From positions 32,001-96,000 of the IMG/VR virus record IMGVR_UViG_3300005098_000017: 64,000 bases of DNA; one strand, 5' to 3'. Below, one piece after another: positions 340-27,756 of the stretch; positions within the stretch are counted from its first letter, which is position 1; the number at the start of each line of letters is the position of its first letter. Both the position numbers and the translations under genes were made by a program. The DNA comes from a virus. The notes below the pieces were generated by a model. That model worked only from the letters and a program-made list of their open reading frames with translations, was not told where the DNA came from and searched no databases.

Positions 340-834
340 TTAATCCTCCTCTTTTTTATTCAATGCTCTCATATAAAGATATGAAAGCCGATCCATATTA
401 AGCTCCGCGCAATGCTCACATATTGGGATGGGATTACAAAGATATCCTAATTCGCTATGTATCACTAGCTTCTCATCATAATATGAGGTGCCTATATACA
501 TGTCTCTGGTAAGAATCCTACCACAAATACCACATCTTTTTTGTTCTTCAGGCGGTTTTCTCAAAGTATCAATCATATCGGCTAATTCATAGAGGCGGGC
601 TTCAATTTCTTTGATACTTTTTTCAACTTCTTTCCGCATTTCATTATGATATTCACTATGGTCAATTTTGTAGCTCCTCATGTCGCGAAATAAACCATTG
701 ATCTTCGTTTCAATACTTTCCTAGATGTTATTAAGATCCTCTTTTAGTCTTCTAATGTCTAATTCTAATGTATGAATCCAATTATGCACCATGGAAATAT
801 TTTCTATTTCCTTCCTTTTCTTTCTACCAAACAT
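340..834 (-). pseudogene. coiled-coil/Zn-finger protein interrupted by in-frame TAG at 721-723 (distal ORF 340-681)
   Basis: AAGGAGG-ATG at 834; frame continues through one TAG into 340-681, which has two CxxC motifs. Confidence 0.55.
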
Positions 835-867
835 TTTATACCTCCTTATTTTTGTTCATCAAACTGA

Positions 868-1332
868 CTATAAATCATTAGATTCAAGAAACTGGTGGAC
901 CTCTTCCACTATCCGCCTTATTATGTCGTATTTCCTTATCGAATTCAATAATATTACTTCATCCATTGTTAAATACCTTCCATACAATGCTCTTACCTGC
1001 CCATTTTCTAACTTATAGCCGTACAATGATCCGTCTTCAGCAACAAATTCAACTTGCGCTTTCTCAAGGTAAGGCGAGAGGGCTTCAAGCAGAACATCAA
1101 AGTCGTTCCATTTATCAAAGAAATCGCAGTCCTCGATCACCAGAAAATTACTGCCGGTAAGCTCATTACTAATTATGGATATATCACAGTCTTGTAGAAT
1201 CCACGCAGATCTAGATATCGGAGTAGCCTTCTTTATGGCTTCTTTTATGTCGCAAGCTGTAACACCATCCTTTACCTTTATCACATACAAAATGAGTGTA
1301 CTATACTGAGACATCTTATTCCTCCTTTGCAA
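868..1332 (-). CDS. hypothetical protein, paralog of 1316-1762
   Basis: AQVEFVAEDGSLYGYKLENGQV vs ANVEMLRDDDNLVGYWVEDGQI. Confidence 0.75.
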   Translation of the reverse strand: MQRRNKMSQYSTLILYVIKVKDGVTACDIKEAIKKATPISRSAWILQDCDISIISNELTGSNFLVIEDCDFFDKWNDFDVLLEALSPYLEKAQVEFVAEDGSLYGYKLENGQVRALYGRYLTMDEVILLNSIRKYDIIRRIVEEVHQFLESNDL

Positions 1333-1762
1333 TCATGGAAGCCACCTCCTTTATTAGTCTCCTTGCTATCTTTCCAGACTTGCTTCCAAACAGTGCGCTT
1401 ATTAGTTGCGCGTCATCCACTGGTACGAATATGCCTCTTGTCTCTATAATCTGTCCATCCTCTACCCAATACCCTACGAGGTTATCATCATCACGAAGCA
1501 TTTCAACATTTGCAAGATCAACCTTATCCTTAATAGCATCTAGTATTTCCTTTGCATCTTCTACAGGAAGCCACACATCGGGATCAAATCTCGCAAGGTG
1601 TGCATAATCATCATCATTACTAACAATACAACGCGCGTAGGTTATATAACTAGAAACCTCATTACCAATATCCTCTATAATATTAATGATCTCATCAGCC
1701 TTCCCTTTATCTACAGAGAATTCAAAATTTAGTAGTATAGCCTTATCACCCATTTTTATCAC
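1316..1762 (-). CDS. hypothetical protein, paralog of 868-1332
   Basis: RBS, overlaps neighbours, shared motif. Confidence 0.75.
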   Translation of the reverse strand: MIKMGDKAILLNFEFSVDKGKADEIINIIEDIGNEVSSYITYARCIVSNDDDYAHLARFDPDVWLPVEDAKEILDAIKDKVDLANVEMLRDDDNLVGYWVEDGQIIETRGIFVPVDDAQLISALFGSKSGKIARRLIKEVASMIAKEE

Positions 1763-2030
1763 CTTCCTTTCTTGGAGGCGGCGGCTTCACCCCTGCATGC
1801 AATGCTAAAATAAACCATCGTCTCCTAGCTTCATCTAAGCCTGCCAGCGCGGCCTCCCTTGTCTCACCCATACTCATGCATCCCGGTAGATCCTCTATCT
1901 CCGCAACCCACTCATCATTCCACTTCCATACCTTAATCGCATAGCTGCGCTTCATATACTTCTCTATTTCATCCTTGTACTTTATCGCTACGTCCTCAAG
2001 TTCCTTATTACTTATGTATCTACCTTTCAA
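1746..2030 (-). CDS. HicB-like antitoxin domain protein
   Basis: WVAEIEDLPGCMSMGETREAAL matches the HicB N-terminal signature. Confidence 0.8.
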   Translation of the reverse strand: MKGRYISNKELEDVAIKYKDEIEKYMKRSYAIKVWKWNDEWVAEIEDLPGCMSMGETREAALAGLDEARRRWFILALHAGVKPPPPRKEGDKNG

Positions 2031-2042
2031 GACAATCCTCCT

Positions 2043-2294
2043 TTACTGACAATCCAATTCAAATATTTCAAACCAGTCGTGGGCTTCATTATAGATTATA
2101 ATATATGTCCCGGGTACATCATTCAATAAAGCTTCCATCATCTCTTCATCCGTCGTATCTTTGTAAGACTCACGATCATCCCATTTCTCAATAGACATAC
2201 CTGTCAGCTTGTGAAACTCCTTCTCAAGTGAGAATGTACGAACAAACTCACACAAATCAGAAACCACCCAATAGCCCTTGACATTTGCTAACAC
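2043..2294 (-). CDS. hypothetical protein
   Basis: AAGGAGG RBS, GTG start. Confidence 0.65.
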   Translation of the reverse strand: MLANVKGYWVVSDLCEFVRTFSLEKEFHKLTGMSIEKWDDRESYKDTTDEEMMEALLNDVPGTYIIIYNEAHDWFEIFELDCQ

Positions 2295-2332
2295 AATATC
2301 ACCTCCTTCATCAAATATAAATAATGTAACGA

Positions 2333-2566
2333 TTAGTTAGATCCATCATAAATCATATAATACTCATAGAATCCTGATTCACCTAGATAAAACTCATCAC
2401 CAGATTCCAGTTCATCCAGATCACATCCTATTATATCTTCTATTTCATCCCGTGTTAAACCGACAAGTTCTGACACCTCATCAAGCGTAAGCCCATGGTG
2501 CTCTGTGCTTTTATTTGTCTGGATATTAAACACCTCAAGTGTGAAGAATCTCTTCTTTTTAGCCAT
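2333..2566 (-). CDS. hypothetical acidic protein
   Basis: AGGAGG RBS. Confidence 0.65.
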   Translation of the reverse strand: MAKKKRFFTLEVFNIQTNKSTEHHGLTLDEVSELVGLTRDEIEDIIGCDLDELESGDEFYLGESGFYEYYMIYDGSN

Positions 2567-2603
2567 AATAAACCTCCTAATGTGTAATAAAGGTATTACA
2601 ATA

Positions 2604-2795
2604 TTACTGTTTCTTCATATGAGGTTTGGCAGCTTTAACTAATGTACTCATCATCTTCTTGCAGAACTTCTCCCATTTACAACCTTTGCAGGTCGGGCGC
2701 TTCACATTACAAGACCTGTATATATGTTCTACAAGGACATCACCATCCTTGCCTCTGAGAGGCCTGCACTTTATGCTAAATTCTACTTCTAACAT
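2604..2795 (-). CDS. small Cys-rich hypothetical protein
   Basis: GGAGG RBS, coupled to upstream ORF. Confidence 0.6.
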   Translation of the reverse strand: MLEVEFSIKCRPLRGKDGDVLVEHIYRSCNVKRPTCKGCKWEKFCKKMMSTLVKAAKPHMKKQ

Positions 2796-3106
2796 TTATC
2801 ACCTCCATGTAATTCTTTCAAATCCTTCTCCATTTCATCAAGACATTTTTCACATCCATCATATCCTCGCGGAAACCATCTTTTGTGTCTCTCACACCAT
2901 TCAAGGCCCGGTTCCCACAAGGGACATTGGTGGTCTTCATCTGTTCCTACTTCTCCATTAATACCGAGTCTTTCAAGCTCTTCCTCTTTCATACAACCAG
3001 CATCTAACATGCTGCCACTAGACAATGCTACACCTGATGGAGACGGATCGAACCATTCCTCATAATAATGCTTACATGTTTTACATACCCCCACTTTTAT
3101 ATCCAT
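2789..3106 (-). CDS. Cys-rich hypothetical protein
   Basis: CxxC motifs, AAGGAG RBS. Confidence 0.65.
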   Translation of the reverse strand: MDIKVGVCKTCKHYYEEWFDPSPSGVALSSGSMLDAGCMKEEELERLGINGEVGTDEDHQCPLWEPGLEWCERHKRWFPRGYDGCEKCLDEMEKDLKELHGGDKC

Positions 3107-3545
3107 TTGAATTCTCCTTTTTGCAAAGTCTACTTTCTATAACATAATTCCTTACTACAAGCATTGCTGACACTATTACTACAAAAATGCCTGTGGTTAG
3201 GGTGAACATTCTGTCAGAACCAACACATGTATTCCATGGTAGCAAAAAGAGACCAGAAAGCAAGTACAAGATGTTAAGTATTAATAGTTTTGCCTCCTTA
3301 TATGGGCTTTTCTTTATATTTGGAAGAAAAAGGTATAAACTCATTATTCCTTGTAAGATTACATAGAGTCCAAGAAAAGTTCGCATTTGATTGATATGCC
3401 ATGTAGCTAATAACATAAAGATATAAGCAACAACACCTGCCTCATGAATGCAAAAATATGACCTACTTTCTTTTGTAAAGGCCTCATGTAACGCATAACA
3501 CATTAATGTAATCGTTGCTATTCCTAATAAACATAGAGTTAACAT
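3081..3545 (-). CDS. multi-pass membrane protein
   Basis: about five hydrophobic segments, AGGAGG RBS. Confidence 0.7.
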   Translation of the reverse strand: MLTLCLLGIATITLMCYALHEAFTKESRSYFCIHEAGVVAYIFMLLATWHINQMRTFLGLYVILQGIMSLYLFLPNIKKSPYKEAKLLILNILYLLSGLFLLPWNTCVGSDRMFTLTTGIFVVIVSAMLVVRNYVIESRLCKKENSNGYKSGGM

Positions 3546-3549
3546 ATAT

Positions 3550-4647
3550 CTACCTCCTTTTAATCTCTTCTATCATTCTGACTCTCCTAGCTCTGATCCG
3601 TCCTTTCATGCATGTTAAAATATCTTTAACATCAACCTCAACTGCTATAAGAGCATCACCCTCAATCTCGTTCTCATCAAACGGCATGTAGCAATAGATG
3701 CCCTCCACACCATCTTCCGGAAATTCATCTGGTCCTTCATGAAAACACGTATTCGGTCTGGGGGCTTCTGTTACTCTTCCGGGCTCATAGAACAGGTTTC
3801 CATCAGTATAAGTGGTACTGCGATATGCTTCATCCGGTGTATCTAGTTGATATATTCTGCGTATCAAGTGTTCCATATCCAGATCACTCGTTCTCTCCAT
3901 TTTATCAACCCGCTTGTACAAAATATACTTACCACCTACGGGATATATATTCAGACTGCAAGCAATGTACTGTATGATATCATCCTTTATATCCTTAGTT
4001 AAATCACCATGTCGTATCACAGCAGTACTATAAGCCTCTGCATTTCCATGCAACCTTGCTGTCCCCATTATAGCTGCATGACCATATACCCTAGCATTAT
4101 CACAAACCTCGGCACACTCTTGGATACGTGCATTACCGTATATTTCAGCATTCCCATATACTCGAGCATAATTCCATACGGATGCATAATCATGCACTCG
4201 TGCATTTCCACCTATTACGGCTTGGTTCATTATCTTCGCATAACCATACACACGAGCATTACCATATAATCTAACATTACCACATATGCGAGCATTATCG
4301 TACACTTTCACATTATCGTACATCGTAATGCATTGACCCTCCACAATAGCATTACCAGCTATTTCAACATTGTCAGTTATCATAACAACGCCATATATAC
4401 AAGCATTGTCCCTCACTTTGGCATTCCCGATTATTCTGACATCACCATAAACCATTGCATCATCATAAACCCAACAATCCCCTTCATGCGAGAGGTTACT
4501 TTCCTTTTCGATAAAACCACCAACATCCCCGGCTTTTACATCACTGAAATCTCTTAATGCTTTTATCCGGTAAAGCCTTACTCCATTGAATGTTATTGTG
4601 TCGTTATGCATCAGCTTGTATTTCCTCTTATTATTTATGTCCGACAT
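3550..4647 (-). CDS. phage hexapeptide-repeat (left-handed beta-helix-like) protein
   Basis: LYRIKALRDFSDVKAGDVGGFIEKESNLS followed by many NARVYG-type hexapeptides. Confidence 0.85.
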   Translation of the reverse strand: MSDINNKRKYKLMHNDTITFNGVRLYRIKALRDFSDVKAGDVGGFIEKESNLSHEGDCWVYDDAMVYGDVRIIGNAKVRDNACIYGVVMITDNVEIAGNAIVEGQCITMYDNVKVYDNARICGNVRLYGNARVYGYAKIMNQAVIGGNARVHDYASVWNYARVYGNAEIYGNARIQECAEVCDNARVYGHAAIMGTARLHGNAEAYSTAVIRHGDLTKDIKDDIIQYIACSLNIYPVGGKYILYKRVDKMERTSDLDMEHLIRRIYQLDTPDEAYRSTTYTDGNLFYEPGRVTEAPRPNTCFHEGPDEFPEDGVEGIYCYMPFDENEIEGDALIAVEVDVKDILTCMKGRIRARRVRMIEEIKRR

Positions 4648-4730
4648 ATTACCTCCTTTTTGTGATTTGCATATTTTAACACCTTCTTATCAATAATAAT
4701 AAAAACCATAATGACAATGAAGCCGCGGCT

Positions 4731-5150
4731 TCACACATAGTGCTTCCTATAATAATATACACCTAACCTATAAGCATCCTTAATACAGTCAGGCATATCA
4801 GGAAATTTTTCATCCATTTTCTCAACCTTATCGGTCCATGATGCATCAATCAAACTTAGAATCCGAATTTTATCTCCATAAAAATTCTGTGCGATGGCTG
4901 TATAAAGACAATGATGTATCCGATCTTTATCCTCGCTATAAGCATCGCCTATTGCAACAGCATCAAAATCTTTAAACTTTTTTATTACATGGTCAACAAC
5001 CTTCTTTATATAATTGACACAATCATGTGGTTCCACTCCCGCGAAAGACATTGATCCAAGCTCGCGGGCTTCCCCTGTCTTTTCATCCATAACAGCATAA
5101 CCTATCACAGGATATCCATGATATATGTCTACAACAAATGAAAGTAACAC
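4731..5150 (-). CDS. degenerate RuvC/RNase H-fold protein
   Basis: VVD...IGYAVMD, DAVAIGD and DAYRLGVYY resemble RuvC motif spacing. Confidence 0.4.
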   Translation of the reverse strand: MLLSFVVDIYHGYPVIGYAVMDEKTGEARELGSMSFAGVEPHDCVNYIKKVVDHVIKKFKDFDAVAIGDAYSEDKDRIHHCLYTAIAQNFYGDKIRILSLIDASWTDKVEKMDEKFPDMPDCIKDAYRLGVYYYRKHYV

Positions 5151-18323: not shown

Positions 18324-18412
18324 TCCATCACGAGCCAACAAGCCGGCCAAACCCTCCGGCACTCTTGCGGCACCGCTCCTCGCAGGCCGCACACAGGGGA
18401 GGAGAGGCTTGG

Positions 18413-18479
18413 GGAGGCCTCTTAGACCCTCTATGAGGGAGCTCCAGCGCCACGTCAAGGCGGGCCTCCAGTGCTGGAG
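18413..18479 (-). ncRNA. HDV/CPEB3-like ribozyme fold, copy A
   Basis: P1 CUCCAGC/GCUGGAG, P2 GGAGGCC/GGCCUCC, P3 GCC/GGC, L3 UUGACGU, P4 CCCUC/GAGGG, J4/2 UCUAA. Confidence 0.8.
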
Positions 18480-18577
18480 TAGCCCCCCGGTGCGGGGGCT
18501 TCATTTTTTTCACCTCCTTTCTAGCGGGATGAACTAGCCCGGCCATCTAGCCCATCCCGCGGTTTAAGGTTTAACCT

Positions 18578-20983
18578 TTAATCAAGTTTCCAGAAGTTGA
18601 GCCAGAATTCGCGATCGGCAGTAGCAAGAGGATGAAGACCAACAGGGGTTTTGATTCCAAGAATCCGCGCGAGCTGCCAGTTGCGCTTCTTACCAGTATG
18701 CAGTTCTACAAGAAAGCGTACATGTGCTTCAAGATCAGATTCAGTACCGGCAACAATAGCCAAGAAATCGCTCTCAGCGACAGTAAGAGATTTCCAAGTG
18801 GTAAGAATCGCCTGAGGTTCAAATCTAGCAAGAAGCCTGCGGAAACGCCTGTTTAGCCTCCGGAAGTTCCTAGTAAGAAGTACACGAAGTTCAGATACTT
18901 TACTCGCAAGGAAGCGCCGACGCCTGTCGAGCTCTCTGCGCCGCCTGCCAAGGGTAGCCAGAGCATCAGAAAGGTGATCAAGCCTAGGTAGCAGCCACTT
19001 TTCCATTTTTCGCCTCAGAACTTCGTTTCTGATCCCAGATGCTAGGAACCTGACTTTAGTTTCAGGTCTCGCATTAGCGAAGAGTCTACGGCTCCGATTA
19101 ACTACCGTATCAATCGCCGTTACTTTCTCTGCAAGAGCATTCACTTCATTCTCTATCTTCCGTATTCGAGAGAGCGTCCGTCCGAACATGCGCCTCCTTA
19201 TGCGATCCCACTTGAGGAACAATGCCTTAACTTCTGGATCAATGGTGCCATCAGGAATAAGATCCTTAAGAGACCTAACCTCTGGCTCAGCAAACTCAAC
19301 TTCAGGAATAAATTCAGCAAGAGGACCTGTTGGAGTTATTGCTACTGGATCCGCCTTCGCAGTCCTATTAGCGATCATTTGAGTAACAGTATCAAGCCTG
19401 GCAGTCGTACTCGCGAGTAGATGCAGTCCCGCTTCTACCTCATGACGAAGCTCCGGTTCTTTACCATTAGCAAGATTCACTGCAGCTTGGAGTAGCGCTC
19501 CAGTTCTCGCAACAAGATCCATATTAAGTTCAGTATCAGAAAGAAGCATTCGGGTAAAACCAGCATCAGCTCTCGCAATCATTTCCTTACCCAGCTCAAT
19601 ATTTTCCACTTCGGTACTAGGATCCATTCTCCACTCTCCGAAAGATATCTCCTTTATCCGGCTTCGTACGCTATCGAAGAATTCCTTAGCAACGAGAGGT
19701 TCCTTGAAGACCTTGGATGCCGCGGCGAGAGCCACTTTGTCGCCATCGGCATCCCATCCGCTAGGCATATCTGCAGGGTGTACCAGAATCGCATGCGCAC
19801 GATGGTCAACAATAATAGGAAGGATAAGAGTATCACCAGGCAAGATGGGCGACTTCTGTATGAGTAGGAGTTCTCCATCTTTCAGACCAAGCATCCGTGC
19901 AATCACAGGAGGAATAACAGCAGTGCCGGGATGTGCATTCTGAAATCCCAGATAGAAGCCCGGGCCTAGTCTCAACTTCCGAAGTGCAATCTTTAAGTGG
20001 TCCAGAAGCACTCTCCGCAGGAAGCCTGCCTCCTTTATGAGGCCGAATTTCCGCAGAATATCAGCAGTCAGAGTCAGCACTGCACTAGGTTCATTGATCG
20101 GATCAGCGTTTTTAACAAGGATATCAGCCGCTACCTCAGGATCAGAAAAACCATTAATAGCTTCAGCAATCTGCTCCTGAATCCGTTCAACAAACTCAGG
20201 CGCTGGATTAACATTCCATCCGAGTTTCCTTGGTAGAAGGAACCAGCGCGGCAGAGCTTGGCTGAGACTGATGCCGCCCGCGAATACGGCACCAACCTCA
20301 TGCAGCATGATGGTTCGCCCGAGTTCGAGTACGAAGCGCCGCCTCTTGATGAGTTTTGCGGTGTCAGCATCAGCAACGATATCAGTCCCTGTTTCCAGCT
20401 CCGTGAGGACCTCATCTGCAAGAGCTTCATTTCCAAGATACAACATCAGCCTCTGGAACCCAACTCTGCCGGGAAGAACTGGTACCGCTATCCCTTTCAG
20501 ACCAATAGCAGTCACTTTAAATCCATTCTTCACAAGAGCACGGGTAACCTTAGAAACCTCAGCCTCTGTAGGAGCATATGCTGCTGCCACAAGTTTTGTA
20601 AACCGTTCGCTAACGAAGAAGATCCCATCCACATTCATTTTCATATTGAGCTTGAGACCACGGATGCGAAGATCCATACCAGCCACACGTTCCGGCTTGA
20701 AATCCCAGCCTTTATTCGGAATTTCCGGCGTTGTCATCATCTGGATGCGCTTTCCAGGAAGAGATCTCAGATCAAATTCAGGATCACCGAGAATATTCGC
20801 AATCACTCTATTAACAGTCTCTATAGCAGAAGTAGGAACCACCTTGAAGATCCTACAATCTGGAATCATAGTAGGCTTCATTGGAAGATCAGAGTTCAGA
20901 TCAGGATCAAATGCGAAGAAGACACTAGCACCAGCTTCAGTAAATAACGCTTGCAGAGGAGACCTCGGTATTCTTTCCATCAT
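18578..20983 (-). CDS. single-subunit two-barrel (DPBB) RNA polymerase, eukaryotic RdRP/YonO-like (start revised, 801 aa)
   Basis: motifs DGIFFVS, GLKG, KSPILPGD and SGWDADGD in the same order as cellular RdRP DGIGxIS, GYKG, KNPCLHPGD and SGxDLDGD; AAGGAGGTG RBS before 20983. Confidence 0.8.
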   Translation of the reverse strand: MMERIPRSPLQALFTEAGASVFFAFDPDLNSDLPMKPTMIPDCRIFKVVPTSAIETVNRVIANILGDPEFDLRSLPGKRIQMMTTPEIPNKGWDFKPERVAGMDLRIRGLKLNMKMNVDGIFFVSERFTKLVAAAYAPTEAEVSKVTRALVKNGFKVTAIGLKGIAVPVLPGRVGFQRLMLYLGNEALADEVLTELETGTDIVADADTAKLIKRRRFVLELGRTIMLHEVGAVFAGGISLSQALPRWFLLPRKLGWNVNPAPEFVERIQEQIAEAINGFSDPEVAADILVKNADPINEPSAVLTLTADILRKFGLIKEAGFLRRVLLDHLKIALRKLRLGPGFYLGFQNAHPGTAVIPPVIARMLGLKDGELLLIQKSPILPGDTLILPIIVDHRAHAILVHPADMPSGWDADGDKVALAAASKVFKEPLVAKEFFDSVRSRIKEISFGEWRMDPSTEVENIELGKEMIARADAGFTRMLLSDTELNMDLVARTGALLQAAVNLANGKEPELRHEVEAGLHLLASTTARLDTVTQMIANRTAKADPVAITPTGPLAEFIPEVEFAEPEVRSLKDLIPDGTIDPEVKALFLKWDRIRRRMFGRTLSRIRKIENEVNALAEKVTAIDTVVNRSRRLFANARPETKVRFLASGIRNEVLRRKMEKWLLPRLDHLSDALATLGRRRRELDRRRRFLASKVSELRVLLTRNFRRLNRRFRRLLARFEPQAILTTWKSLTVAESDFLAIVAGTESDLEAHVRFLVELHTGKKRNWQLARILGIKTPVGLHPLATADREFWLNFWKLD

Positions 20984-21039
20984 ATCACCTCCTTTCCGCC
21001 GCGGATTTCGTTGCCCTCGGTGCGGCACTCCGAGGGTCG

Positions 21040-21124
21040 CCGGGCTTCGAGCGTCATTGGTGCCAAGGCTGGCCATAGAATGAAGCCCGGAAATTCTATG
21101 GCCATGGCCGGGCGCCTTGACACC
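21040..21124 (-). ncRNA. elaborated 5'-UTR pseudoknot PK5 (polymerase leader)
   Basis: stems GGUGUCAAGGC/GCCUUGGCACC and UGGCCAUAGAAU/AUUCUAUGGCCA; loop CCGGGCUUC pairs with GAAGCCCGG. Confidence 0.65.
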
Positions 21125-21155
21125 TCTGCTCTTTCGCGCATTTTATTTAACCTTA

Positions 21156-21596
21156 TTATCGATTAAATTCTCCATCCAATACAGCAAGCAGTAATCTTTG
21201 GAGTCTTCTTGGATCGGGTAAACCATATGCAATTCCATAGATTGGGGACCATGAATCCACATTCACCCTAACTGTTGTTCCCAAAATTTTGAATTCGAAA
21301 GCATAATCATCGATAGTATAGCTACCCTCCATTACCGATTGGAAAATGAGTGCGTCTACTAGATCCTCACAAGCCCACTCCGGATGTTGCTCAAGAATAA
21401 CTCTCTGGATCTCTAAAGTATCACACCAACCCACAATAACTCTACGTTCATCATCCATAACGTACCCCGACCGCAGATGCAAATTGTACCATTTCTCACC
21501 CACCTTGGCAGTTACCCAAGGCGGTGAGAAGTAGTAGTCGCCGACTTTAACTTTGTCGGCGATCCAGTCACCGATTACGTCCCACAACCATGACAT
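21156..21596 (-). CDS. hypothetical protein
   Basis: AAGGAGGTG RBS just after ribozyme B. Confidence 0.75.
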   Translation of the reverse strand: MSWLWDVIGDWIADKVKVGDYYFSPPWVTAKVGEKWYNLHLRSGYVMDDERRVIVGWCDTLEIQRVILEQHPEWACEDLVDALIFQSVMEGSYTIDDYAFEFKILGTTVRVNVDSWSPIYGIAYGLPDPRRLQRLLLAVLDGEFNR

Positions 21597-21627
21597 TTTA
21601 CACCTCCTTTAGTTTGACTTTCTTCTC

Positions 21628-21699
21628 GAGGGACTCTTAGATCCCGCATAAGCGGGAAGCCCCGGCGCCACGACAAGGCGGTCCCTCAAAAAGCCGGGG
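21628..21699 (-). ncRNA. HDV/CPEB3-like ribozyme fold, copy B
   Basis: P1 CCCCGGC/GCCGGGG, P2 GAGGGAC/GUCCCUC, L3 UUGUCGU, P4 UCCCGC/GCGGGA, UCUAA; begins immediately after the stop codon of 21700-22170. Confidence 0.8.
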
Positions 21700-22170
21700 T
21701 TAACTCAATTTGACATCATTATTATCCTTCTCTTTCTTTATCCACTCTATCAATTCATCCACTAGGCGCTCCACATTATAATCATCAATAATAAGAAGCG
21801 CCCTCCTGACCTTGTAGCCGAGCACCTCATGCGCTTTTAGCACATGCCTCGGCATCCAAGGCCAGGTCTCATTGTATCCCCCATTATATTTGATTTGGAG
21901 AAGGATTACCTCCTTCTTATGGGGGATACCAATGCTGACGTCGATTTTAAATACGACGTCAGCTTTACTCCCGACAGGATAGTCTATTAATTTCCATCCC
22001 GCCGGAAGCTTGGAGGATAGTTCTTCAATGAATCTATCCTCCGCTTCGAAGCCAGCTCTATGCGCCTCATGTGCGATAGAGCTAACCTCGAAATCCGGGC
22101 GGATTATTTCATGACATTCCGCCCAGAATTTTCGCGCTATAGTGCGGGCCTTCTCCATTTCATTTCTCAT
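21700..22170 (-). CDS. possible PD-(D/E)XK nuclease-fold protein
   Basis: GFEAEDRF...D...IDV...LQIK spacing. Confidence 0.4.
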   Translation of the reverse strand: MRNEMEKARTIARKFWAECHEIIRPDFEVSSIAHEAHRAGFEAEDRFIEELSSKLPAGWKLIDYPVGSKADVVFKIDVSIGIPHKKEVILLQIKYNGGYNETWPWMPRHVLKAHEVLGYKVRRALLIIDDYNVERLVDELIEWIKKEKDNNDVKLS

Positions 22171-22233
22171 TTATTACTCCTCCATATGCATTCCGCCAAG
22201 GAAGTGACAAGTCCCCAAGGTCTTCTACCGTTG

Positions 22234-23070
22234 TCATAATATCACCTCCCTTACTTTGATAACAGGGTTAACCCAATCAACAAAATGATAGATTTTGTTT
22301 ATACGAGGGGGACAACCTTGGTCTCCCTTTATTTCGATATCATTATGATCAGCTATCCATACCTCATGAAACTGATTAAACAGTTTCTTAAATATAGGCG
22401 CCGCCTCCATCTCATATCCCGGCTTAACCTCTATATTATTCGCCAGAAGAACATTATCGTTACCGGTCACCGCTACCATAAGCGCACGAATCTTATTGTT
22501 TTCCACATCTTCCATCACATATGTGATGGCATCACCAAACGTCATGGTGTGCCATCCGTCATGGAAGATGTGTGCGCAGCAATGTACATGGAACCCTAAG
22601 AACGGAAATCTTGGATCTTTACGCGATAGTGGACGAAGTAACCAGCGTTCCGTTCTAATTACAGGTAAATCTGTTATGTCCACAGCCGGTAATGAGATCC
22701 ATTCCCGAAATAATTTCTGAATTTTACCACTATGAAGGTCTATTTTTGTATACCTTGGATGCCACCGCCAAAATTCTTTCCAAAATTCGCGGTGGCCATA
22801 TCGTCTAGCCCAAGATGTCACCAAGTTTTCCCTCGGTGACATCCTCTCATCGAGGCCTGTTTCATTAGCGGCCTCAATGAGATGGGGGCTTAGTGGCCCC
22901 CTAAACTTAAAGATATACCCTGCAAATTCTGGCCGCAAAAGTGGCGTTAGAAGCCACAAGGCATCGCGGCCGATTTTATTTAAATTATCACGGCCGTATG
23001 CCCTTATGGCTATCTCGATAAGAGGTTGCAATGTCTTATTCTTCATCAAGCCTTCCAAATATGCATTCAT
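22234..23070 (-). CDS. hypothetical protein (LG..CC..NNIE motif, PcfJ-like by weak resemblance)
   Basis: AAGGAGG RBS; family call from recalled motif only. Confidence 0.55.
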   Translation of the reverse strand: MNAYLEGLMKNKTLQPLIEIAIRAYGRDNLNKIGRDALWLLTPLLRPEFAGYIFKFRGPLSPHLIEAANETGLDERMSPRENLVTSWARRYGHREFWKEFWRWHPRYTKIDLHSGKIQKLFREWISLPAVDITDLPVIRTERWLLRPLSRKDPRFPFLGFHVHCCAHIFHDGWHTMTFGDAITYVMEDVENNKIRALMVAVTGNDNVLLANNIEVKPGYEMEAAPIFKKLFNQFHEVWIADHNDIEIKGDQGCPPRINKIYHFVDWVNPVIKVREVIL

Positions 23071-23107
23071 TTTTACCTCCTTTATTTTTATACATATTCT
23101 CCATTTT

Positions 23108-23166
23108 TGCCCGCATTAGTTTACCAAGGGCACCATCTGACCTGCGGGCATTGATCAGATGGCGCC
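23108..23166 (-). ncRNA. 5'-UTR H-type pseudoknot PK6
   Basis: 14-bp stem GGCGCCAUCUGAUC/GGUCAGAUGGUGCC; loop AAUGCCCGCA pairs with UGCGGGCA. Confidence 0.7.
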
Positions 23167-23232
23167 TATATACAAAATGGGCACCGTATAGTCATGGTAA
23201 CAATACGGTGCCCTCACAACATCCCCTTTTAT

Positions 23233-23310
23233 TAGGGTGCTCTTAGACCCTTAGGGATTGGACCTAAGGGAGCCCCTCCACCACGTCAAGGTGGCACCCT
23301 ATCGGAGGGG
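23233..23310 (-). ncRNA. HDV/CPEB3-like ribozyme fold, copy C
   Basis: P1 CCCCUCC/GGAGGGG, P2 UAGGGUGC/GCACCCUA, P3 ACC/GGU, L3 UUGACGU, P4 CCCUUAGG/CCUAAGGG, UCUAA. Confidence 0.8.
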
Positions 23311-23363
23311 TAGCGGGGTCTTGGACCCCGCTCTTGACTCTTGAGGCCGGCCGGTTTATTTTT

Positions 23364-23570
23364 TTAATATTTCCTGTAATCATGATACAAATGGATTATA
23401 CTTTCATACCTGCCAAATATTTTGACAGGCATAGCATGCAAATCTGTTACTTTCATGCCTTCATAGAAGAATTGACCTTCTCCAAAATACTTATGGAGAA
23501 GGTCTGTTTCCTTTATAGGATGATCTAGCAAGAACAAAACTCCTTCTTTTATAAACCCAATCACCGGCAT
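23364..23570 (-). CDS. 68-aa cassette protein (start revised to MPVIGF)
   Basis: AGGAGG directly after PK7. Confidence 0.7.
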   Translation of the reverse strand: MPVIGFIKEGVLFLLDHPIKETDLLHKYFGEGQFFYEGMKVTDLHAMPVKIFGRYESIIHLYHDYRKY

Positions 23571-23582
23571 GATAAACCTCCT

Positions 23583-23643
23583 CGCCGCACCTTGGTTCAA
23601 CTCCCAGTATGCATACGGTGCGGCACTTATATGCATACTGGGA
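23583..23643 (-). ncRNA. 5'-UTR H-type pseudoknot PK7
   Basis: 15-bp stem UCCCAGUAUGCAUAU/GUAUGCAUACUGGGA; loop AAGUGCCGCACC pairs with GGUGCGGCG. Confidence 0.75.
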
Positions 23644-23659
23644 TACCGGCCGGCCTTAT

Positions 23660-23734
23660 GGACACTCTTAGACCCTTAGGGATTGGACCTAAGGGAGCCC
23701 TCCAGCCACGTCAAGGCGGTGTCCTTCTGGAGGG
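23660..23734 (-). ncRNA. HDV/CPEB3-like ribozyme fold, copy D
   Basis: P1 CCCUCCA/UGGAGGG, P2 GGACAC/GUGUCC, P3 GCC/GGC, L3 UUGACGU, same P4 as copy C, UCUAA. Confidence 0.8.
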
Positions 23735-23786
23735 TAGCAAGGCCATCATGTGAGACCTTGCTTTGGCTTGGGCGGCAAATCCTTCC

Positions 23787-23993
23787 TTAAAATTCGTAAT
23801 ACCAGACTTTTTTTCCAATTCTTTCAATATATTTGGCAAGTTTCCTTACTTTTCTAGTAGGTCTACCACCTGTGTAAGCCATACCTGATACCAAAGGCCT
23901 AAGAAGACTGACTCTGCCATCTGGAAATAATTCCCCAACAAACCTGATCAAATCCTTGCCTATCCAGAGATCAACTATAACTGTCCTTGTCAT
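23787..23993 (-). CDS. 68-aa cassette protein
   Basis: AAGGAGG directly after PK8. Confidence 0.7.
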   Translation of the reverse strand: MTRTVIVDLWIGKDLIRFVGELFPDGRVSLLRPLVSGMAYTGGRPTRKVRKLAKYIERIGKKVWYYEF

Positions 23994-24006
23994 TTTTTCC
24001 TCCTTT

Positions 24007-24067
24007 CGCCGCGGTCAGTTTTAACCACCAGTGGGCCCACACCGCGGCATTTATGGTACCCACTGGC
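24007..24067 (-). ncRNA. 5'-UTR H-type pseudoknot PK8
   Basis: stem GCCAGUGGGU/GCCCACUGGU; loop AAAUGCCGCGGU pairs with ACCGCGGCG. Confidence 0.75.
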
Positions 24068-24083
24068 TTGCCGCCCAAGCCAT

Positions 24084-24154
24084 CGGACGCTCTTAGACCT
24101 AGCCACAAGGCTAGGAGCCCCTCCACCACGTCAAGGTGGCGTCCGTCGGAGGGG
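24084..24154 (-). ncRNA. HDV/CPEB3-like ribozyme fold, copy E
   Basis: P1 CCCCUCC/GGAGGGG, P2 CGGACGC/GCGUCCG, P3 ACC/GGU, L3 UUGACGU, P4 CCUAGCC/GGCUAGG, UCUAA. Confidence 0.8.
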
Positions 24155-24207
24155 TAGCAAGACCCCAAGGGGCCTTGCCTCGTCTACGGGGGCGCCAATA
24201 GACCGTA

Positions 24208-26136: not shown

Positions 26137-26528
26137 TTTATCTCCTTATTATTTTTATCGTTGAAATATGTTTTTCTAAATTCCTCTAGGATAGGTTCAT
26201 CACCTGTACCATAGAGGACGGCGTGCATCCATTCAGTTACCTGATCTGCTGTATGGTGTGGAAATACATCCTTCATGCATCCGAAGTATTTTTGCCAGTT
26301 GGTTGGTTTAGGTTTTTTATGTTCTTTTATAGTCCATTTTTTGGTAGCTGTGGCGGATCCGTAGGTTGTGAGGATGAGGCCTATAATTATTATTATTATG
26401 GTGTATGTAGTGGGATTATTGGTGTAGTGGTGGAGGAGGAAGCCGGCCGCAGTGGTAAGTAGGCCCCAGAATCGTTTGCTCCTCCAGAAGGGTTTGGTGT
26501 TATTATTGTTATTATCGTGTGTGTTCAT
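26133..26528 (-). CDS. holin-like two-TM protein with soluble tail
   Basis: KPFWRSKRFW followed by two TM segments. Confidence 0.5.
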   Translation of the reverse strand: MNTHDNNNNNTKPFWRSKRFWGLLTTAAGFLLHHYTNNPTTYTIIIIIIGLILTTYGSATATKKWTIKEHKKPKPTNWQKYFGCMKDVFPHHTADQVTEWMHAVLYGTGDEPILEEFRKTYFNDKNNKEIK

Positions 26529-27756
26529 TTTGGGTCTCCTTTATGTTATGAAGCCCGCGCTTCAGTATATTAATACTTGCATTATAATCTCTATCGAGGG
26601 TTGCACCACAGAACGGGCATTTATGTATACGATCGTGGAGTGCCTTAGGTACCTTATGTCCACATGAGGAGCATGTCTGCGTAGTATATGCTGGGTTAAC
26701 CTTGATGACTTGTGAGCCGTGAAGCCGCGCCTTGTAGGATGTTAGATTGATAAGTGTGTTCCATCCTGCGTCGTAGATGTATTTAGAGAGGTGAAGCCGG
26801 CGGCGCTTGCTTACAAGATCATGTATTTTTATATCCTCGAATATAATAACATCATAGTTAGTAGCGAGCTGATGTGAGATATGATGGAGGAAGCCGCGCC
26901 GCATGTTAGCTAATCGTTCATGAAGTCTGGCTAGTTTACGCCTCTGTTTCATATAATTAGCACTCCCTCGCTGCTTGCGCGAGAGCTGTTTTTGTACACG
27001 CTTTATACGTTTTTCGAGTTTGGAGATGAAGCGCGGGTTAGATACAATATTACCATCACTTGATACGATGAGATTCGTAAGCCCGAGATCTATACCGATG
27101 ACGCGCTGCTTACTATTAATATCGGTAACGATAGTAGTGTCATTATTATTGGGTACTTCAACTGTTACATATGCATACCATCTACCACTGGGATGTCTCT
27201 TTATAGTAACATTTTTGGCTTTAGTCCATTCGATAGGTCGGTGAAGGCGGATTTTTAAGCCGCCGAGTTTGGGTAAATGAATATATGCGAACTTATCATT
27301 CAGTTTCTCAAATTTAATGACAGGATACCCATCCGGATAGTTTTTATGAGTCATCCAAACTTGTGGATATGTAAGTGATAAGTATTGATCAGGGTTTTTG
27401 GGTTTAGGCGGACTTATATGTCCTTCTTTATTCCTGATGGCTACAAAGAAACGCTTATATGCCCAGTCAATCTTATCAATTATAGCCTTTAAGACACCTG
27501 AATAAACGAGCCTTAAGGCAGGTTCCTCTCTTTTAAATGCGGTTAGGTTACGTTGCCTCTCAAATTTTGTAGGGGTTCTATGTTCTTCATCCCATATACG
27601 TCTGTATTCATTTATTTCGTAATTATAGAACCAGCAGAGGATGGACAGCCAGTTTTCTAGTTTATATTCCTGTAGTGTTGTTGGATAGGCTCTGAATTTG
27701 TAGGTGAGGTAGGAAGCCGCCGCCTTATCAGTATTTTTTGATCCTTGTTTATTCAT
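26512..27756 (-). CDS. tnpB: IS200/IS605-family TnpB RNA-guided endonuclease
   Basis: YKFRAYPT, IGIDLGL, FEDI, TTQTCSSCG, CPFCG..DRDYNAS; RuvC D/E/D intact. Confidence 0.92.
   Translation of the reverse strand: MNKQGSKNTDKAAASYLTYKFRAYPTTLQEYKLENWLSILCWFYNYEINEYRRIWDEEHRTPTKFERQRNLTAFKREEPALRLVYSGVLKAIIDKIDWAYKRFFVAIRNKEGHISPPKPKNPDQYLSLTYPQVWMTHKNYPDGYPVIKFEKLNDKFAYIHLPKLGGLKIRLHRPIEWTKAKNVTIKRHPSGRWYAYVTVEVPNNNDTTIVTDINSKQRVIGIDLGLTNLIVSSDGNIVSNPRFISKLEKRIKRVQKQLSRKQRGSANYMKQRRKLARLHERLANMRRGFLHHISHQLATNYDVIIFEDIKIHDLVSKRRRLHLSKYIYDAGWNTLINLTSYKARLHGSQVIKVNPAYTTQTCSSCGHKVPKALHDRIHKCPFCGATLDRDYNASINILKRGLHNIKETQNEHTR

Follow-up and report, generated by a model that had tools for sequence, protein, structure and literature searches.

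A phage operon with five repeated RNA elements

The window analysed here is a 64-kb stretch of DNA (64,000 nucleotides) from the 147,433-bp record of an uncultured 147-kb phage, and all coordinates refer to this window. Five copies of a predicted RNA element, A to E, lie in intergenic positions within one operon, all of them on the minus (coding) strand and each located by a fold parse together with a generic HDV-type descriptor. Copy A (18413–18479, predicted cut 18480/18479) is situated downstream of an 803-aa gene of the ORF list (18578–20989, minus strand), which occupies the interval between copies B and A. Copy B (21625–21699, predicted cut 21700/21699) starts directly after the TAA stop codon (21700–21702) of a 156-aa gene, as had been noted before, and 31 nt separate its core from the start codon of the next gene. 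Further along the window follow copies C (23233–23310, predicted cut 23311/23310), D (23660–23734, predicted cut 23735/23734) and E (24084–24154, predicted cut 24155/24154). The descriptor hits, converted by subtracting 32000 from the genome coordinates, begin P1 at 18479, 21699, 23310, 23734 and 24154, exactly where the original prediction had placed it. An A directly precedes P1 in every copy of the window; the dinucleotide UA, claimed for all five, does not hold for copy B, which is preceded by the AA of its UAA stop codon. An open reading frame running through copy A (18328–18546) was considered and rejected as a gene, as indels in related phages break its frame.

The descriptor returned five hits in the phage genome compared with zero to one per random genome (four in total across 20 first-order Markov genomes), and it detected no sixth copy in either the 64-kb window or the whole 147,433-bp record. 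Rfam searches, run with the gathering threshold and with E ≤ 10, yielded chance matches only and no ribozyme family, and thus no match to the HDV-type models (HDV, CPEB3, drz); these covariance models cannot score pseudoknots. We used a descriptor in place of a covariance model, as it copes better with the pseudoknot. Terminator-like sites on the minus strand were absent from the gaps that hold the elements.

Four of the five copies (A, C, D and E) sit one base after a stable minus-strand hairpin identified by minimum free energy (MFE) folding, which in each case ends one base before the predicted cut. The hairpin before copy A (18481–18500) is GC-rich, and in three related contigs its stem is retained while its loop is altered. 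Those before copies C (23312–23332, also recovered as inverted repeat I8), D (23736–23762) and E (24156–24179) have the same placement. Inverted repeats also flank the short stretches between neighbouring elements. In the E-to-D cassette, a 5' arm at 24068–24083 pairs with a 3' arm at 23763–23778 (minus strand, inverted repeat I1), and the two arms covary in the related contigs L081, L086 and L148. The D-to-C cassette is closed by arms at 23645–23656 (5', with a palindromic core) and 23344–23355 (3'; minus strand, inverted repeat I5), which are complementary at 12 of 12 positions and identical in L081 and L146. Each of these cassettes, bounded by elements at both ends, carries a single minus-strand gene of 68 aa (23787–23993 and 23364–23570), and the two genes are unrelated to each other.

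A nested double pseudoknot supported by covariation

An HDV/CPEB3-like fold had been proposed for the elements, and the nested double pseudoknot P1-J1/2-P2-P3-L3-P3'-P1'-CU-P4-J4/2-P2' indeed parses in all five copies. The same HDV-type order parses in related phage contigs (15 unique sequences), which were obtained through a protein cluster search and contig lookup; a protein-based search of IMG/VR for related loci found none. P1 comprises 7 bp in every window copy and occurs in four sequence types (in copy D it is displaced by a single pair from its place in C and E), while the 3-bp P3 has two types, which differ on both of its strands. The P4 hairpins (5–8 bp) fall into four types, and P2 differs in each of the five copies; in copies B, C and E it can be extended by a few bases beyond the ends set originally. 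The compensatory changes that had been reported in P1, P2, P3 and P4 are seen both among the copies and in orthologues from three related phage contigs. In the L086 orthologue of copy A, for instance, P3 is switched on both sides, and orthologues of copy B provide two other P4 hairpins and, in one case, a P1 of 8 bp, so that the 7-bp P1 is not a family-wide invariant. These covariation counts combine paralogues and orthologues within one phage group and are thus not independent events. Helices were counted by a script anchored on L3, because MAFFT alignments misplaced P1 of the B-type copies.

Within the window, the listed invariant residues were all recovered, i.e., a 7-nt L3 with A or U at position 4, CU after P1', U-CUAA in J4/2 and G-A-G opposite CC in P2. 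Across related phages the list needs one amendment, as the base before CUAA can also be C. The J4/2 CUAA, with its putative catalytic C, is present in the sequence of all copies and orthologues, as are U at position 1 and G at position 6 of L3. MFE folding of single sequences yielded z-scores of −0.4 to −1.9 and recovered either P1, P3 and P4 or P2, P3 and P4. These unremarkable values lend no support of their own to the fold and are expected, because it is a pseudoknot.

Inverted pairs in the predicted catalytic core

In all copies, the core combines a first P1 pair C1-G37 with a G of L3 that pairs with a C of J1/4. In the CPEB3 ribozyme, L3 reads U20 U21 C22 A23 C24 G25 U26 and J1/4 reads G37 U38, with a P1.1 composed of C22-G37 plus U-U (bioRxiv 10.1101/2022.09.22.508989). 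The comparison drawn originally is accurate: the phage copies differ from this arrangement only by the G at L3 position 3 and the C at J1/4 position 1, i.e., P1.1 appears flipped from C-G to G-C. Control scans at the scale of the family back the pairing of these two bases. The combination of G at L3 position 3 with C at J1/4 position 1 was found at 84 loci in the phage scan of IMG/VR; G combined with a non-C base occurred at 4 loci, none of which folded, and none of the 79 loci with C and a base other than G folded either. An A-U version of P1.1 is also present, in further loci.

Neither the canonical G1-U37 pair nor G1-C is present; all copies carry C1-G37. The G1-U37 wobble is highly conserved and important in HDV (bioRxiv 10.1101/2022.09.22.508989), and G25 and the C of J4/2 are indispensable to HDV-like ribozymes of solved structure (PMC13635239). 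In CPEB3, activity is restored by compensatory swaps of its one P1.1 pair (PMC9901934), and natural, fast HDV-like ribozymes, one of them in a phage, tolerate a non-canonical P1.1 of U-A plus U-U or C-U (PMC13635239). The latter ribozymes differ from the elements described here in the orientation of P1.1 and in which bases form the first pair of P1, and they are single elements as opposed to an array.

Distribution of the inverted core

The inverted core (C1-G37, and L3 G with J1/4 C) was found at 66 metagenome loci in addition to the 84 phage loci of IMG/VR. Among 34 unique members from metagenomes and phages, 19 P1 types are distinguished, all of them fully paired. P2 played no part in the selection of these members, and 156 of its 170 cells are paired, as compared with 86 ± 6 after shuffling. 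Together with the covariation among the window copies, this supports the HDV/CPEB3-like fold across the wider family. G-U pairs outnumber A-C combinations in P2 (9 vs. 3), which favours the coding strand as the one on which the structure is kept. A prokaryote genome scan with the subfamily pattern, used as a negative control, gave one hit, which did not fold. An earlier IMG/VR pattern that required U-CUAAGAG and a long P4 was discarded as too narrow; its 75 loci were all chance occurrences by the fold filter.

No tRNA is present in the 64-kb window, in agreement with the claim that the five copies, unlike theta ribozymes (which cut no more than 5 nt from a tRNA 3' end), are not tRNA-linked. 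Elsewhere in the family, members on the phage contigs L216 and L208 lie within 1–2 nt of tRNA 3' ends and thus occupy the position at which theta ribozymes are known to cut. Metagenome members also occur in leaders of R2-like ORFs encoding zf-C2H2 and reverse transcriptase domains. The core motif is present in these R2-like members and the 5' strand of P1 was not found within 300 nt; R2 is known to have long J1/2 loops (PMC3774820).

Comparison with known HDV-like ribozymes

An inverted core with C1 is not unprecedented. L1TcRz, the ribozyme of the Pr77 hallmark of Trypanosoma cruzi that went unnamed in the original prediction, is a published active precedent, with Mg-dependent in vitro cleavage 5' of C1 that leaves a 5'-OH (PMC3185411, PMC4035085, PMC1874656). 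Since L1TcRz has C1 and is nevertheless active, G1-U37 is best regarded as a frequent and non-absolute feature of the group. Using the Pr77 oligonucleotide printed in PMC1874656 as the L1Tc sequence, we found that both RNAs pair a +1 C with G, have a C-rich P1 5' strand, an ACC/GGU P3 preceded by two C residues and a J4/2 that starts with CUAAG, and share a near-identical 7-nt L3 ending in ACGU as well as a one-pair P1.1 whose purine lies in L3 and whose pyrimidine lies in J1/4. They differ in that P1.1 of L1TcRz is A-U with a J1/4 of UC, whereas the phage copies have G-C with a J1/4 of CU. Moreover, L1TcRz is located at the 5' terminus of a non-LTR retrotransposon of eukaryotes (L1Tc/ingi clade) and doubles as a promoter, whereas the phage elements lie between operon genes in five copies, four of them with a hairpin just upstream.

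Gut phages also encode theta ribozymes and further minimal HDV-like ribozymes (Kienbeck et al. 2024, PMC10879173), which have the same P3, an L3 ending in ACGU and CUAA in J4/2; some members with the inverted core also abut tRNA 3' ends, as these do. Theta ribozymes are distinguished by G1, a P1.1 of the CC/GG type, the lack of a P4 helix and the tRNA link, whereas the window copies have a P4 of 5–8 bp. In the supplement files of that study that we examined, the inverted L3 string occurred 0 times and the canonical string 1439 times. CPEB3 shares with the phage elements a P1.1 of one Watson–Crick pair plus U-U and a P4 that is a real helix; it differs by C22-G37, a G-initiated P1 and its location in a mammalian intron.

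Probable self-cleavage of a polycistronic message and its alternatives

We consider it likely that the five elements are HDV-like self-cleaving ribozymes with reversed stacked core pairs that cut one long message into separate mRNAs. We infer catalysis, the exact cut site, the co-transcription of the genes and a stabilizing role of the product ends from the features described above. The elements would be transcribed within a single long minus-strand message, and each ribozyme would fold while being made and cleave directly on the 5' side of its own first C. The upstream product would then end in a stable hairpin followed by one A with a 2',3'-cyclic phosphate or, at copy B, exactly at a stop codon. 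The downstream product would carry a 5'-OH on the compact ribozyme fold, followed by the structured leader of the gene itself and a Shine-Dalgarno site. As a net effect, the polycistronic transcript would be converted into separate mRNAs with protected ends, in replacement of intergenic terminators and promoters.

The same architecture could in principle be kept without cutting, as a structured RNA module that blocks exonucleases, binds a protein or insulates folding between cistrons. The missing G1-U37 wobble and the setting of the elements among strong structures (hairpins, closing stems, leader hairpins) would fit such a role. However, the C of J4/2, the U and G of L3 and P1.1 are conserved in unrelated contigs that span hundreds of kilobases, and pure architecture would not need them; members at tRNA 3' ends, and in vitro cutting by L1TcRz with the same orientation of the core pairs, further argue against this explanation, which we regard as unlikely. 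A function mainly at the DNA level, in which the repeats would delimit exchangeable cassettes or serve as sites of their recombination and the RNA fold would be secondary, is suggested by the inverted repeats around short cassettes and by the gene content of the related phages, whose 5, 5, 2 and 4 copies have different small genes between them. Yet pairing is kept by way of G-U pairs, which have no meaning in DNA, the bases that are conserved match the catalytic positions of HDV, and the motif is also found as a single copy in unrelated phages and retrotransposon leaders. An integron attC reading was rejected, as neither a GTTRRRY-type core nor an integrase adjoins the array, and a role at the DNA level is on the whole very improbable.

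A further alternative concerns the register of cleavage by otherwise active ribozymes. If the A before P1 were +1 and formed an A-C wobble with the C of CU, the cut would fall one base upstream. G-U and a protonated A-C wobble are isosteric, and an A does occupy this position in 5 of 5 window copies. The family as a whole, however, has A, U or G at −1, and in copy D the shift would introduce a C-U mismatch into a 4-bp P3. It would also consume the C that covaries with the G of L3, and the mapped +1 base of L1TcRz is C1. We therefore hold this register to be highly improbable. From sequence comparison, the C1-G37 register is favoured, because the −1 base varies and because the copy with an 8-bp P1 keeps the C-G pair adjoining CU.

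Implications for ribozyme searches and phage mRNA

The descriptors usually employed to find HDV-like ribozymes require a +1 G and a P1.1 of the C-G type. The subtype described here is missed by such descriptors, by the theta data set and by Rfam. It links to bacteriophages a core type so far characterized in trypanosome retrotransposons, and its members represent natural test cases for the real importance of the wobble pair at the cleavage site. An operon with five predicted ribozymes, four of them preceded by hairpins, is an unusual arrangement and suggests that the phage sets its mRNA ends by self-cleavage and not by terminators, which, if true, would be a naturally occurring parallel to the synthetic ribozyme insulators of gene-circuit design.

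The cassettes with paired ends raise the possibility of circular phage mRNAs. Beyond the separation of cistrons, adjacent ribozymes might excise an RNA cassette of ~420 nt with one gene, the ends of which would be substrates of an RtcB-type ligase, such that the cassette could be circularized into a very stable, translatable RNA, or might serve as an exchangeable, RNA-defined gene module, in a phage with its own putative RdRP-family polymerase next to the array; this scenario is speculative, and we think it improbable. The protein encoded by the 803-aa gene had no match in Pfam, PHROG, PDB or GenBank phage sequences. An Atlas feature search led to clusters bearing PF05183 (0.94–0.95, to be taken as a lead only), and the gene possibly encodes a polymerase of the RdRP family (two-barrel).

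Five copies of a nested double-pseudoknot fold

The source record is a linear IMG/VR phage genome of 147,433 bp, of which the window comprises bases 32001-96000. Between 16 and 26 kb of the window, the minus strand holds every plausible gene and all five repeats. A strict core pattern and a generic HDV-type descriptor, run separately, each returned exactly five copies across the whole record, in agreement with the original prediction; the first P1 bases lie at window positions 18479 (copy A), 21699 (B), 23310 (C), 23734 (D) and 24154 (E) on the minus strand. In 20 first-order Markov random genomes the descriptor matched zero or one time per genome, four times in total.

Parsing was anchored on the 7-nt L3, and all copies follow the same segment order: a 7-bp P1, a short J1/2, P2, two C residues, a 3-bp P3, L3, P3', P1', CU and P4, followed by J4/2 and P2'. 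The P4 hairpin has 5-8 bp and in all five copies is followed by one pyrimidine, CUAA, G-A-G and P2'. Among the copies there are four sequence types of P1 (displaced by one pair in copy D, still 7 bp long), five of P2, four of P4 and two of P3, the latter differing on both sides. Three proteins are close homologues (80-93% identity) of the 803-aa protein adjoining copy A, and the contigs encoding them (among L081-L088) have orthologous elements in corresponding positions. This yields 15 unique sequences, which all parse identically. In the L086 orthologue of copy A, P3 is switched on both sides; orthologues of copy B have P4 replaced by two other hairpins, and one gained an eighth P1 pair, again C-G and again adjoining CU. 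Nested MFE folding recovered either P1, P3 and P4 or P2, P3 and P4, as expected of a pseudoknot, and its z-scores were not informative.

Orientation of the core pairs

In the flipped core, the first P1 pair is C1-G37 and the single P1.1 pair joins a G in L3 to a C in J1/4, both reversed relative to CPEB3. The CPEB3 L3 and J1/4 sequences given in the original prediction were correct (bioRxiv 10.1101/2022.09.22.508989), and compensatory swaps of the single CPEB3 P1.1 pair restore activity (PMC9901934). In control scans, one core position was changed at a time. An L3 G combined with a non-C base in J1/4 occurred at four loci, none of them folding, and a non-G base in L3 combined with a J1/4 C occurred at 82 loci, with 0 of 79 folding. 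The L3 G and J1/4 C therefore pair, and the G-C orientation proposed for P1.1 held up, as scans that break the pair yielded no folding loci. The A-U version of the flipped pair, with C1-G37 retained, passed at 10 of 39 phage-contig loci (seven unique). Flipped P1.1 with a non-G base at the end of P1' was found at ten loci; five of these, all phage (L324, L326, L327, L332 and L333), fold with a canonical G1-U37 or G1-C37 pair. Reversal of P1.1 and of the first P1 pair is usually, but not always, coupled. Loci L242-L321 (e.g., L254), from the scan for a non-G base at L3 position 3, were rejected as RNA folds; nearly all of them match the conserved start of a ~98-aa lysine-rich ORF that many freshwater phage contigs share.

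Distribution of the flipped core

A single metagenome scan for the subfamily core returned 66 loci, corresponding to 54 unique elements, and a perfect 7-bp P1 was present within 30 nt in 34 of these. The 34 elements comprise 19 P1 and 22 P2 types. P2, which played no part in their selection, shows pairing in 156 of 170 cells vs. 86 ± 6 (maximum 105) after shuffling, and it contains more G-U (9) than A-C (3) pairs, in keeping with the coding strand. The prokaryote genomes scanned with this pattern (596 Gb) held a single match, and it does not fold. In IMG/VR, a less strict pattern for this core identified 84 loci, 52 of which (37 unique) pass a strict fold filter. L4 is only 5 nt long in most IMG/VR loci, and 34 of 44 unique matches are intergenic. 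Three minimal elements, all on the minus strand (2630-2676 and 2982-3038 of phage contig L216, 10449-10495 of L208), begin within 1-2 nt of the 3' end of a tRNA, inside phage tRNA clusters; the arrangement is theta-like, with the core reversed.

The same core motif also precedes R2-like non-LTR retrotransposon ORFs (zf-C2H2 and reverse transcriptase) in metagenome contigs, lying in their 5' leaders at 325-377 of L108 (ORF 512-4909) and 350-402 of L113 (ORF 547-4965); a search of this group for the 5' strand of P1 within 300 nt did not find it. Many other metagenome matches lie on ORF-poor, eukaryotic-looking contigs.

Operon context and gene cassettes

Along the minus strand, the operon reads 94-aa gene, ribozyme E, 68-aa gene, ribozyme D, 68-aa gene, ribozyme C, 278-aa and 156-aa genes, ribozyme B, 146-aa and 803-aa genes, and ribozyme A. 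No Pfam or PHROG family could be assigned to any of its proteins, the 64-kb window contains no tRNA, and the gaps holding ribozymes contain no minus-strand terminator-like sites. Copy B begins directly after a stop codon; each of the copies A, C, D and E is preceded by a stable hairpin, with a single base between its end and the predicted cut. In HDV, an upstream hairpin can stop flanking sequence from misfolding the ribozyme. Cleavage would yield upstream RNAs ending in a 3' hairpin cap and downstream RNAs that open with a folded ribozyme and continue into a structured leader and a strong ribosome-binding site. The leaders after ribozymes E, D and C and before the 803-aa gene (24066-24008, 23640-23584, ~23166-23095 and ~21045-21000, minus strand) share a common design, a long hairpin with a GCCGC-type loop. 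The sequence immediately 5' of the following Shine-Dalgarno site is complementary to this loop, and the two may form an H-type pseudoknot at the ribosome-binding site.

In the segment 18500-18560 (minus strand), a conserved Shine-Dalgarno-like site together with an A-run and an AUG precedes the hairpin of ribozyme A by 6 nt. A 72-aa ORF through this ribozyme was rejected as a gene, its frame not being conserved in relatives. Read on the plus strand, the hairpin and its T-run resemble an intrinsic terminator.

From one predicted cut to the next, the two short cassettes between ribozymes span 420 and 424 nt, and each carries one of two unrelated 68-aa genes. Both are closed by long-range stems (24068-24083 with 23763-23778; 23645-23656 with 23344-23355) that begin 1-3 nt past the 5' ribozyme and end ~30 nt before the next cut, with exactly 289 nt between the arms in each case. 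The arms covary across related contigs; in the related contig L081, both the cassette gene and the arms differ and complementarity is kept. Ribozyme number and intervening genes vary among related phages.

Comparison with known ribozymes

Theta ribozymes resemble the phage copies in P3, in the ACGU that ends L3 and in CUAA but differ in having G1 and CC/GG. In the examined files of the theta supplement (PMC10879173) the flipped string occurs 0 times and the canonical string 1439 times. The closest match is the L1Tc ribozyme of Trypanosoma cruzi, whose published sequence (PMC1874656) has C1, the same P3 and CUAAG like the phage copies; its L3 differs at two positions, and its P1.1 is a single A-U pair with the purine in L3. 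This ribozyme is Mg-dependent and gives a 5'-OH product with +1 mapped to C1, and its authors already remarked on the reversed GC-pair orientation in P1 and on over-restrictive earlier descriptors (PMC3185411, PMC4035085). In eukaryotic retrotransposons, then, the flipped core is already known and active. Solved HDV-like ribozymes tolerate odd P1.1 helices and require G25 and the J4/2 C (PMC13635239).

Fold, covariation, the wider family and the control scans support the predicted HDV-like nature of copies A-E, which most likely represent active ribozymes of an L1Tc-like, flipped-core subtype. Given low probability are a register starting at A+1, to be set beside the C1 start mapped in L1Tc, and a structural module that does not cut, to be set beside the activity of that ribozyme. 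We likewise consider it improbable that the repeats act as cassette boundaries at the DNA level; the gene content between ribozymes, which varies among related phages, and the inverted repeats flanking the short cassettes favor this reading, and the G-U pairs kept in the helices speak against it. Our literature search found no description of the flipped core in phages. This subtype is a novelty among phages, one that current models overlook, and copies A-E are arranged as its five-fold punctuation of a single operon.

Neighboring genes

The 803-aa orphan protein encoded between ribozymes B and A (18578-20989, minus strand) has no match in Pfam, PHROG, PDB or GenBank phages. Its nearest Atlas feature clusters, scoring 0.94-0.95, carry PF05183, a eukaryotic-type RdRP family that also occurs in phage two-barrel RNA polymerases. 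The ribozyme array is preceded, a few kb upstream, by a TnpB/Cas12f-like gene with OrfB_IS605 and TNB domains (26512-27756, minus strand), which keeps the same position in related contigs.
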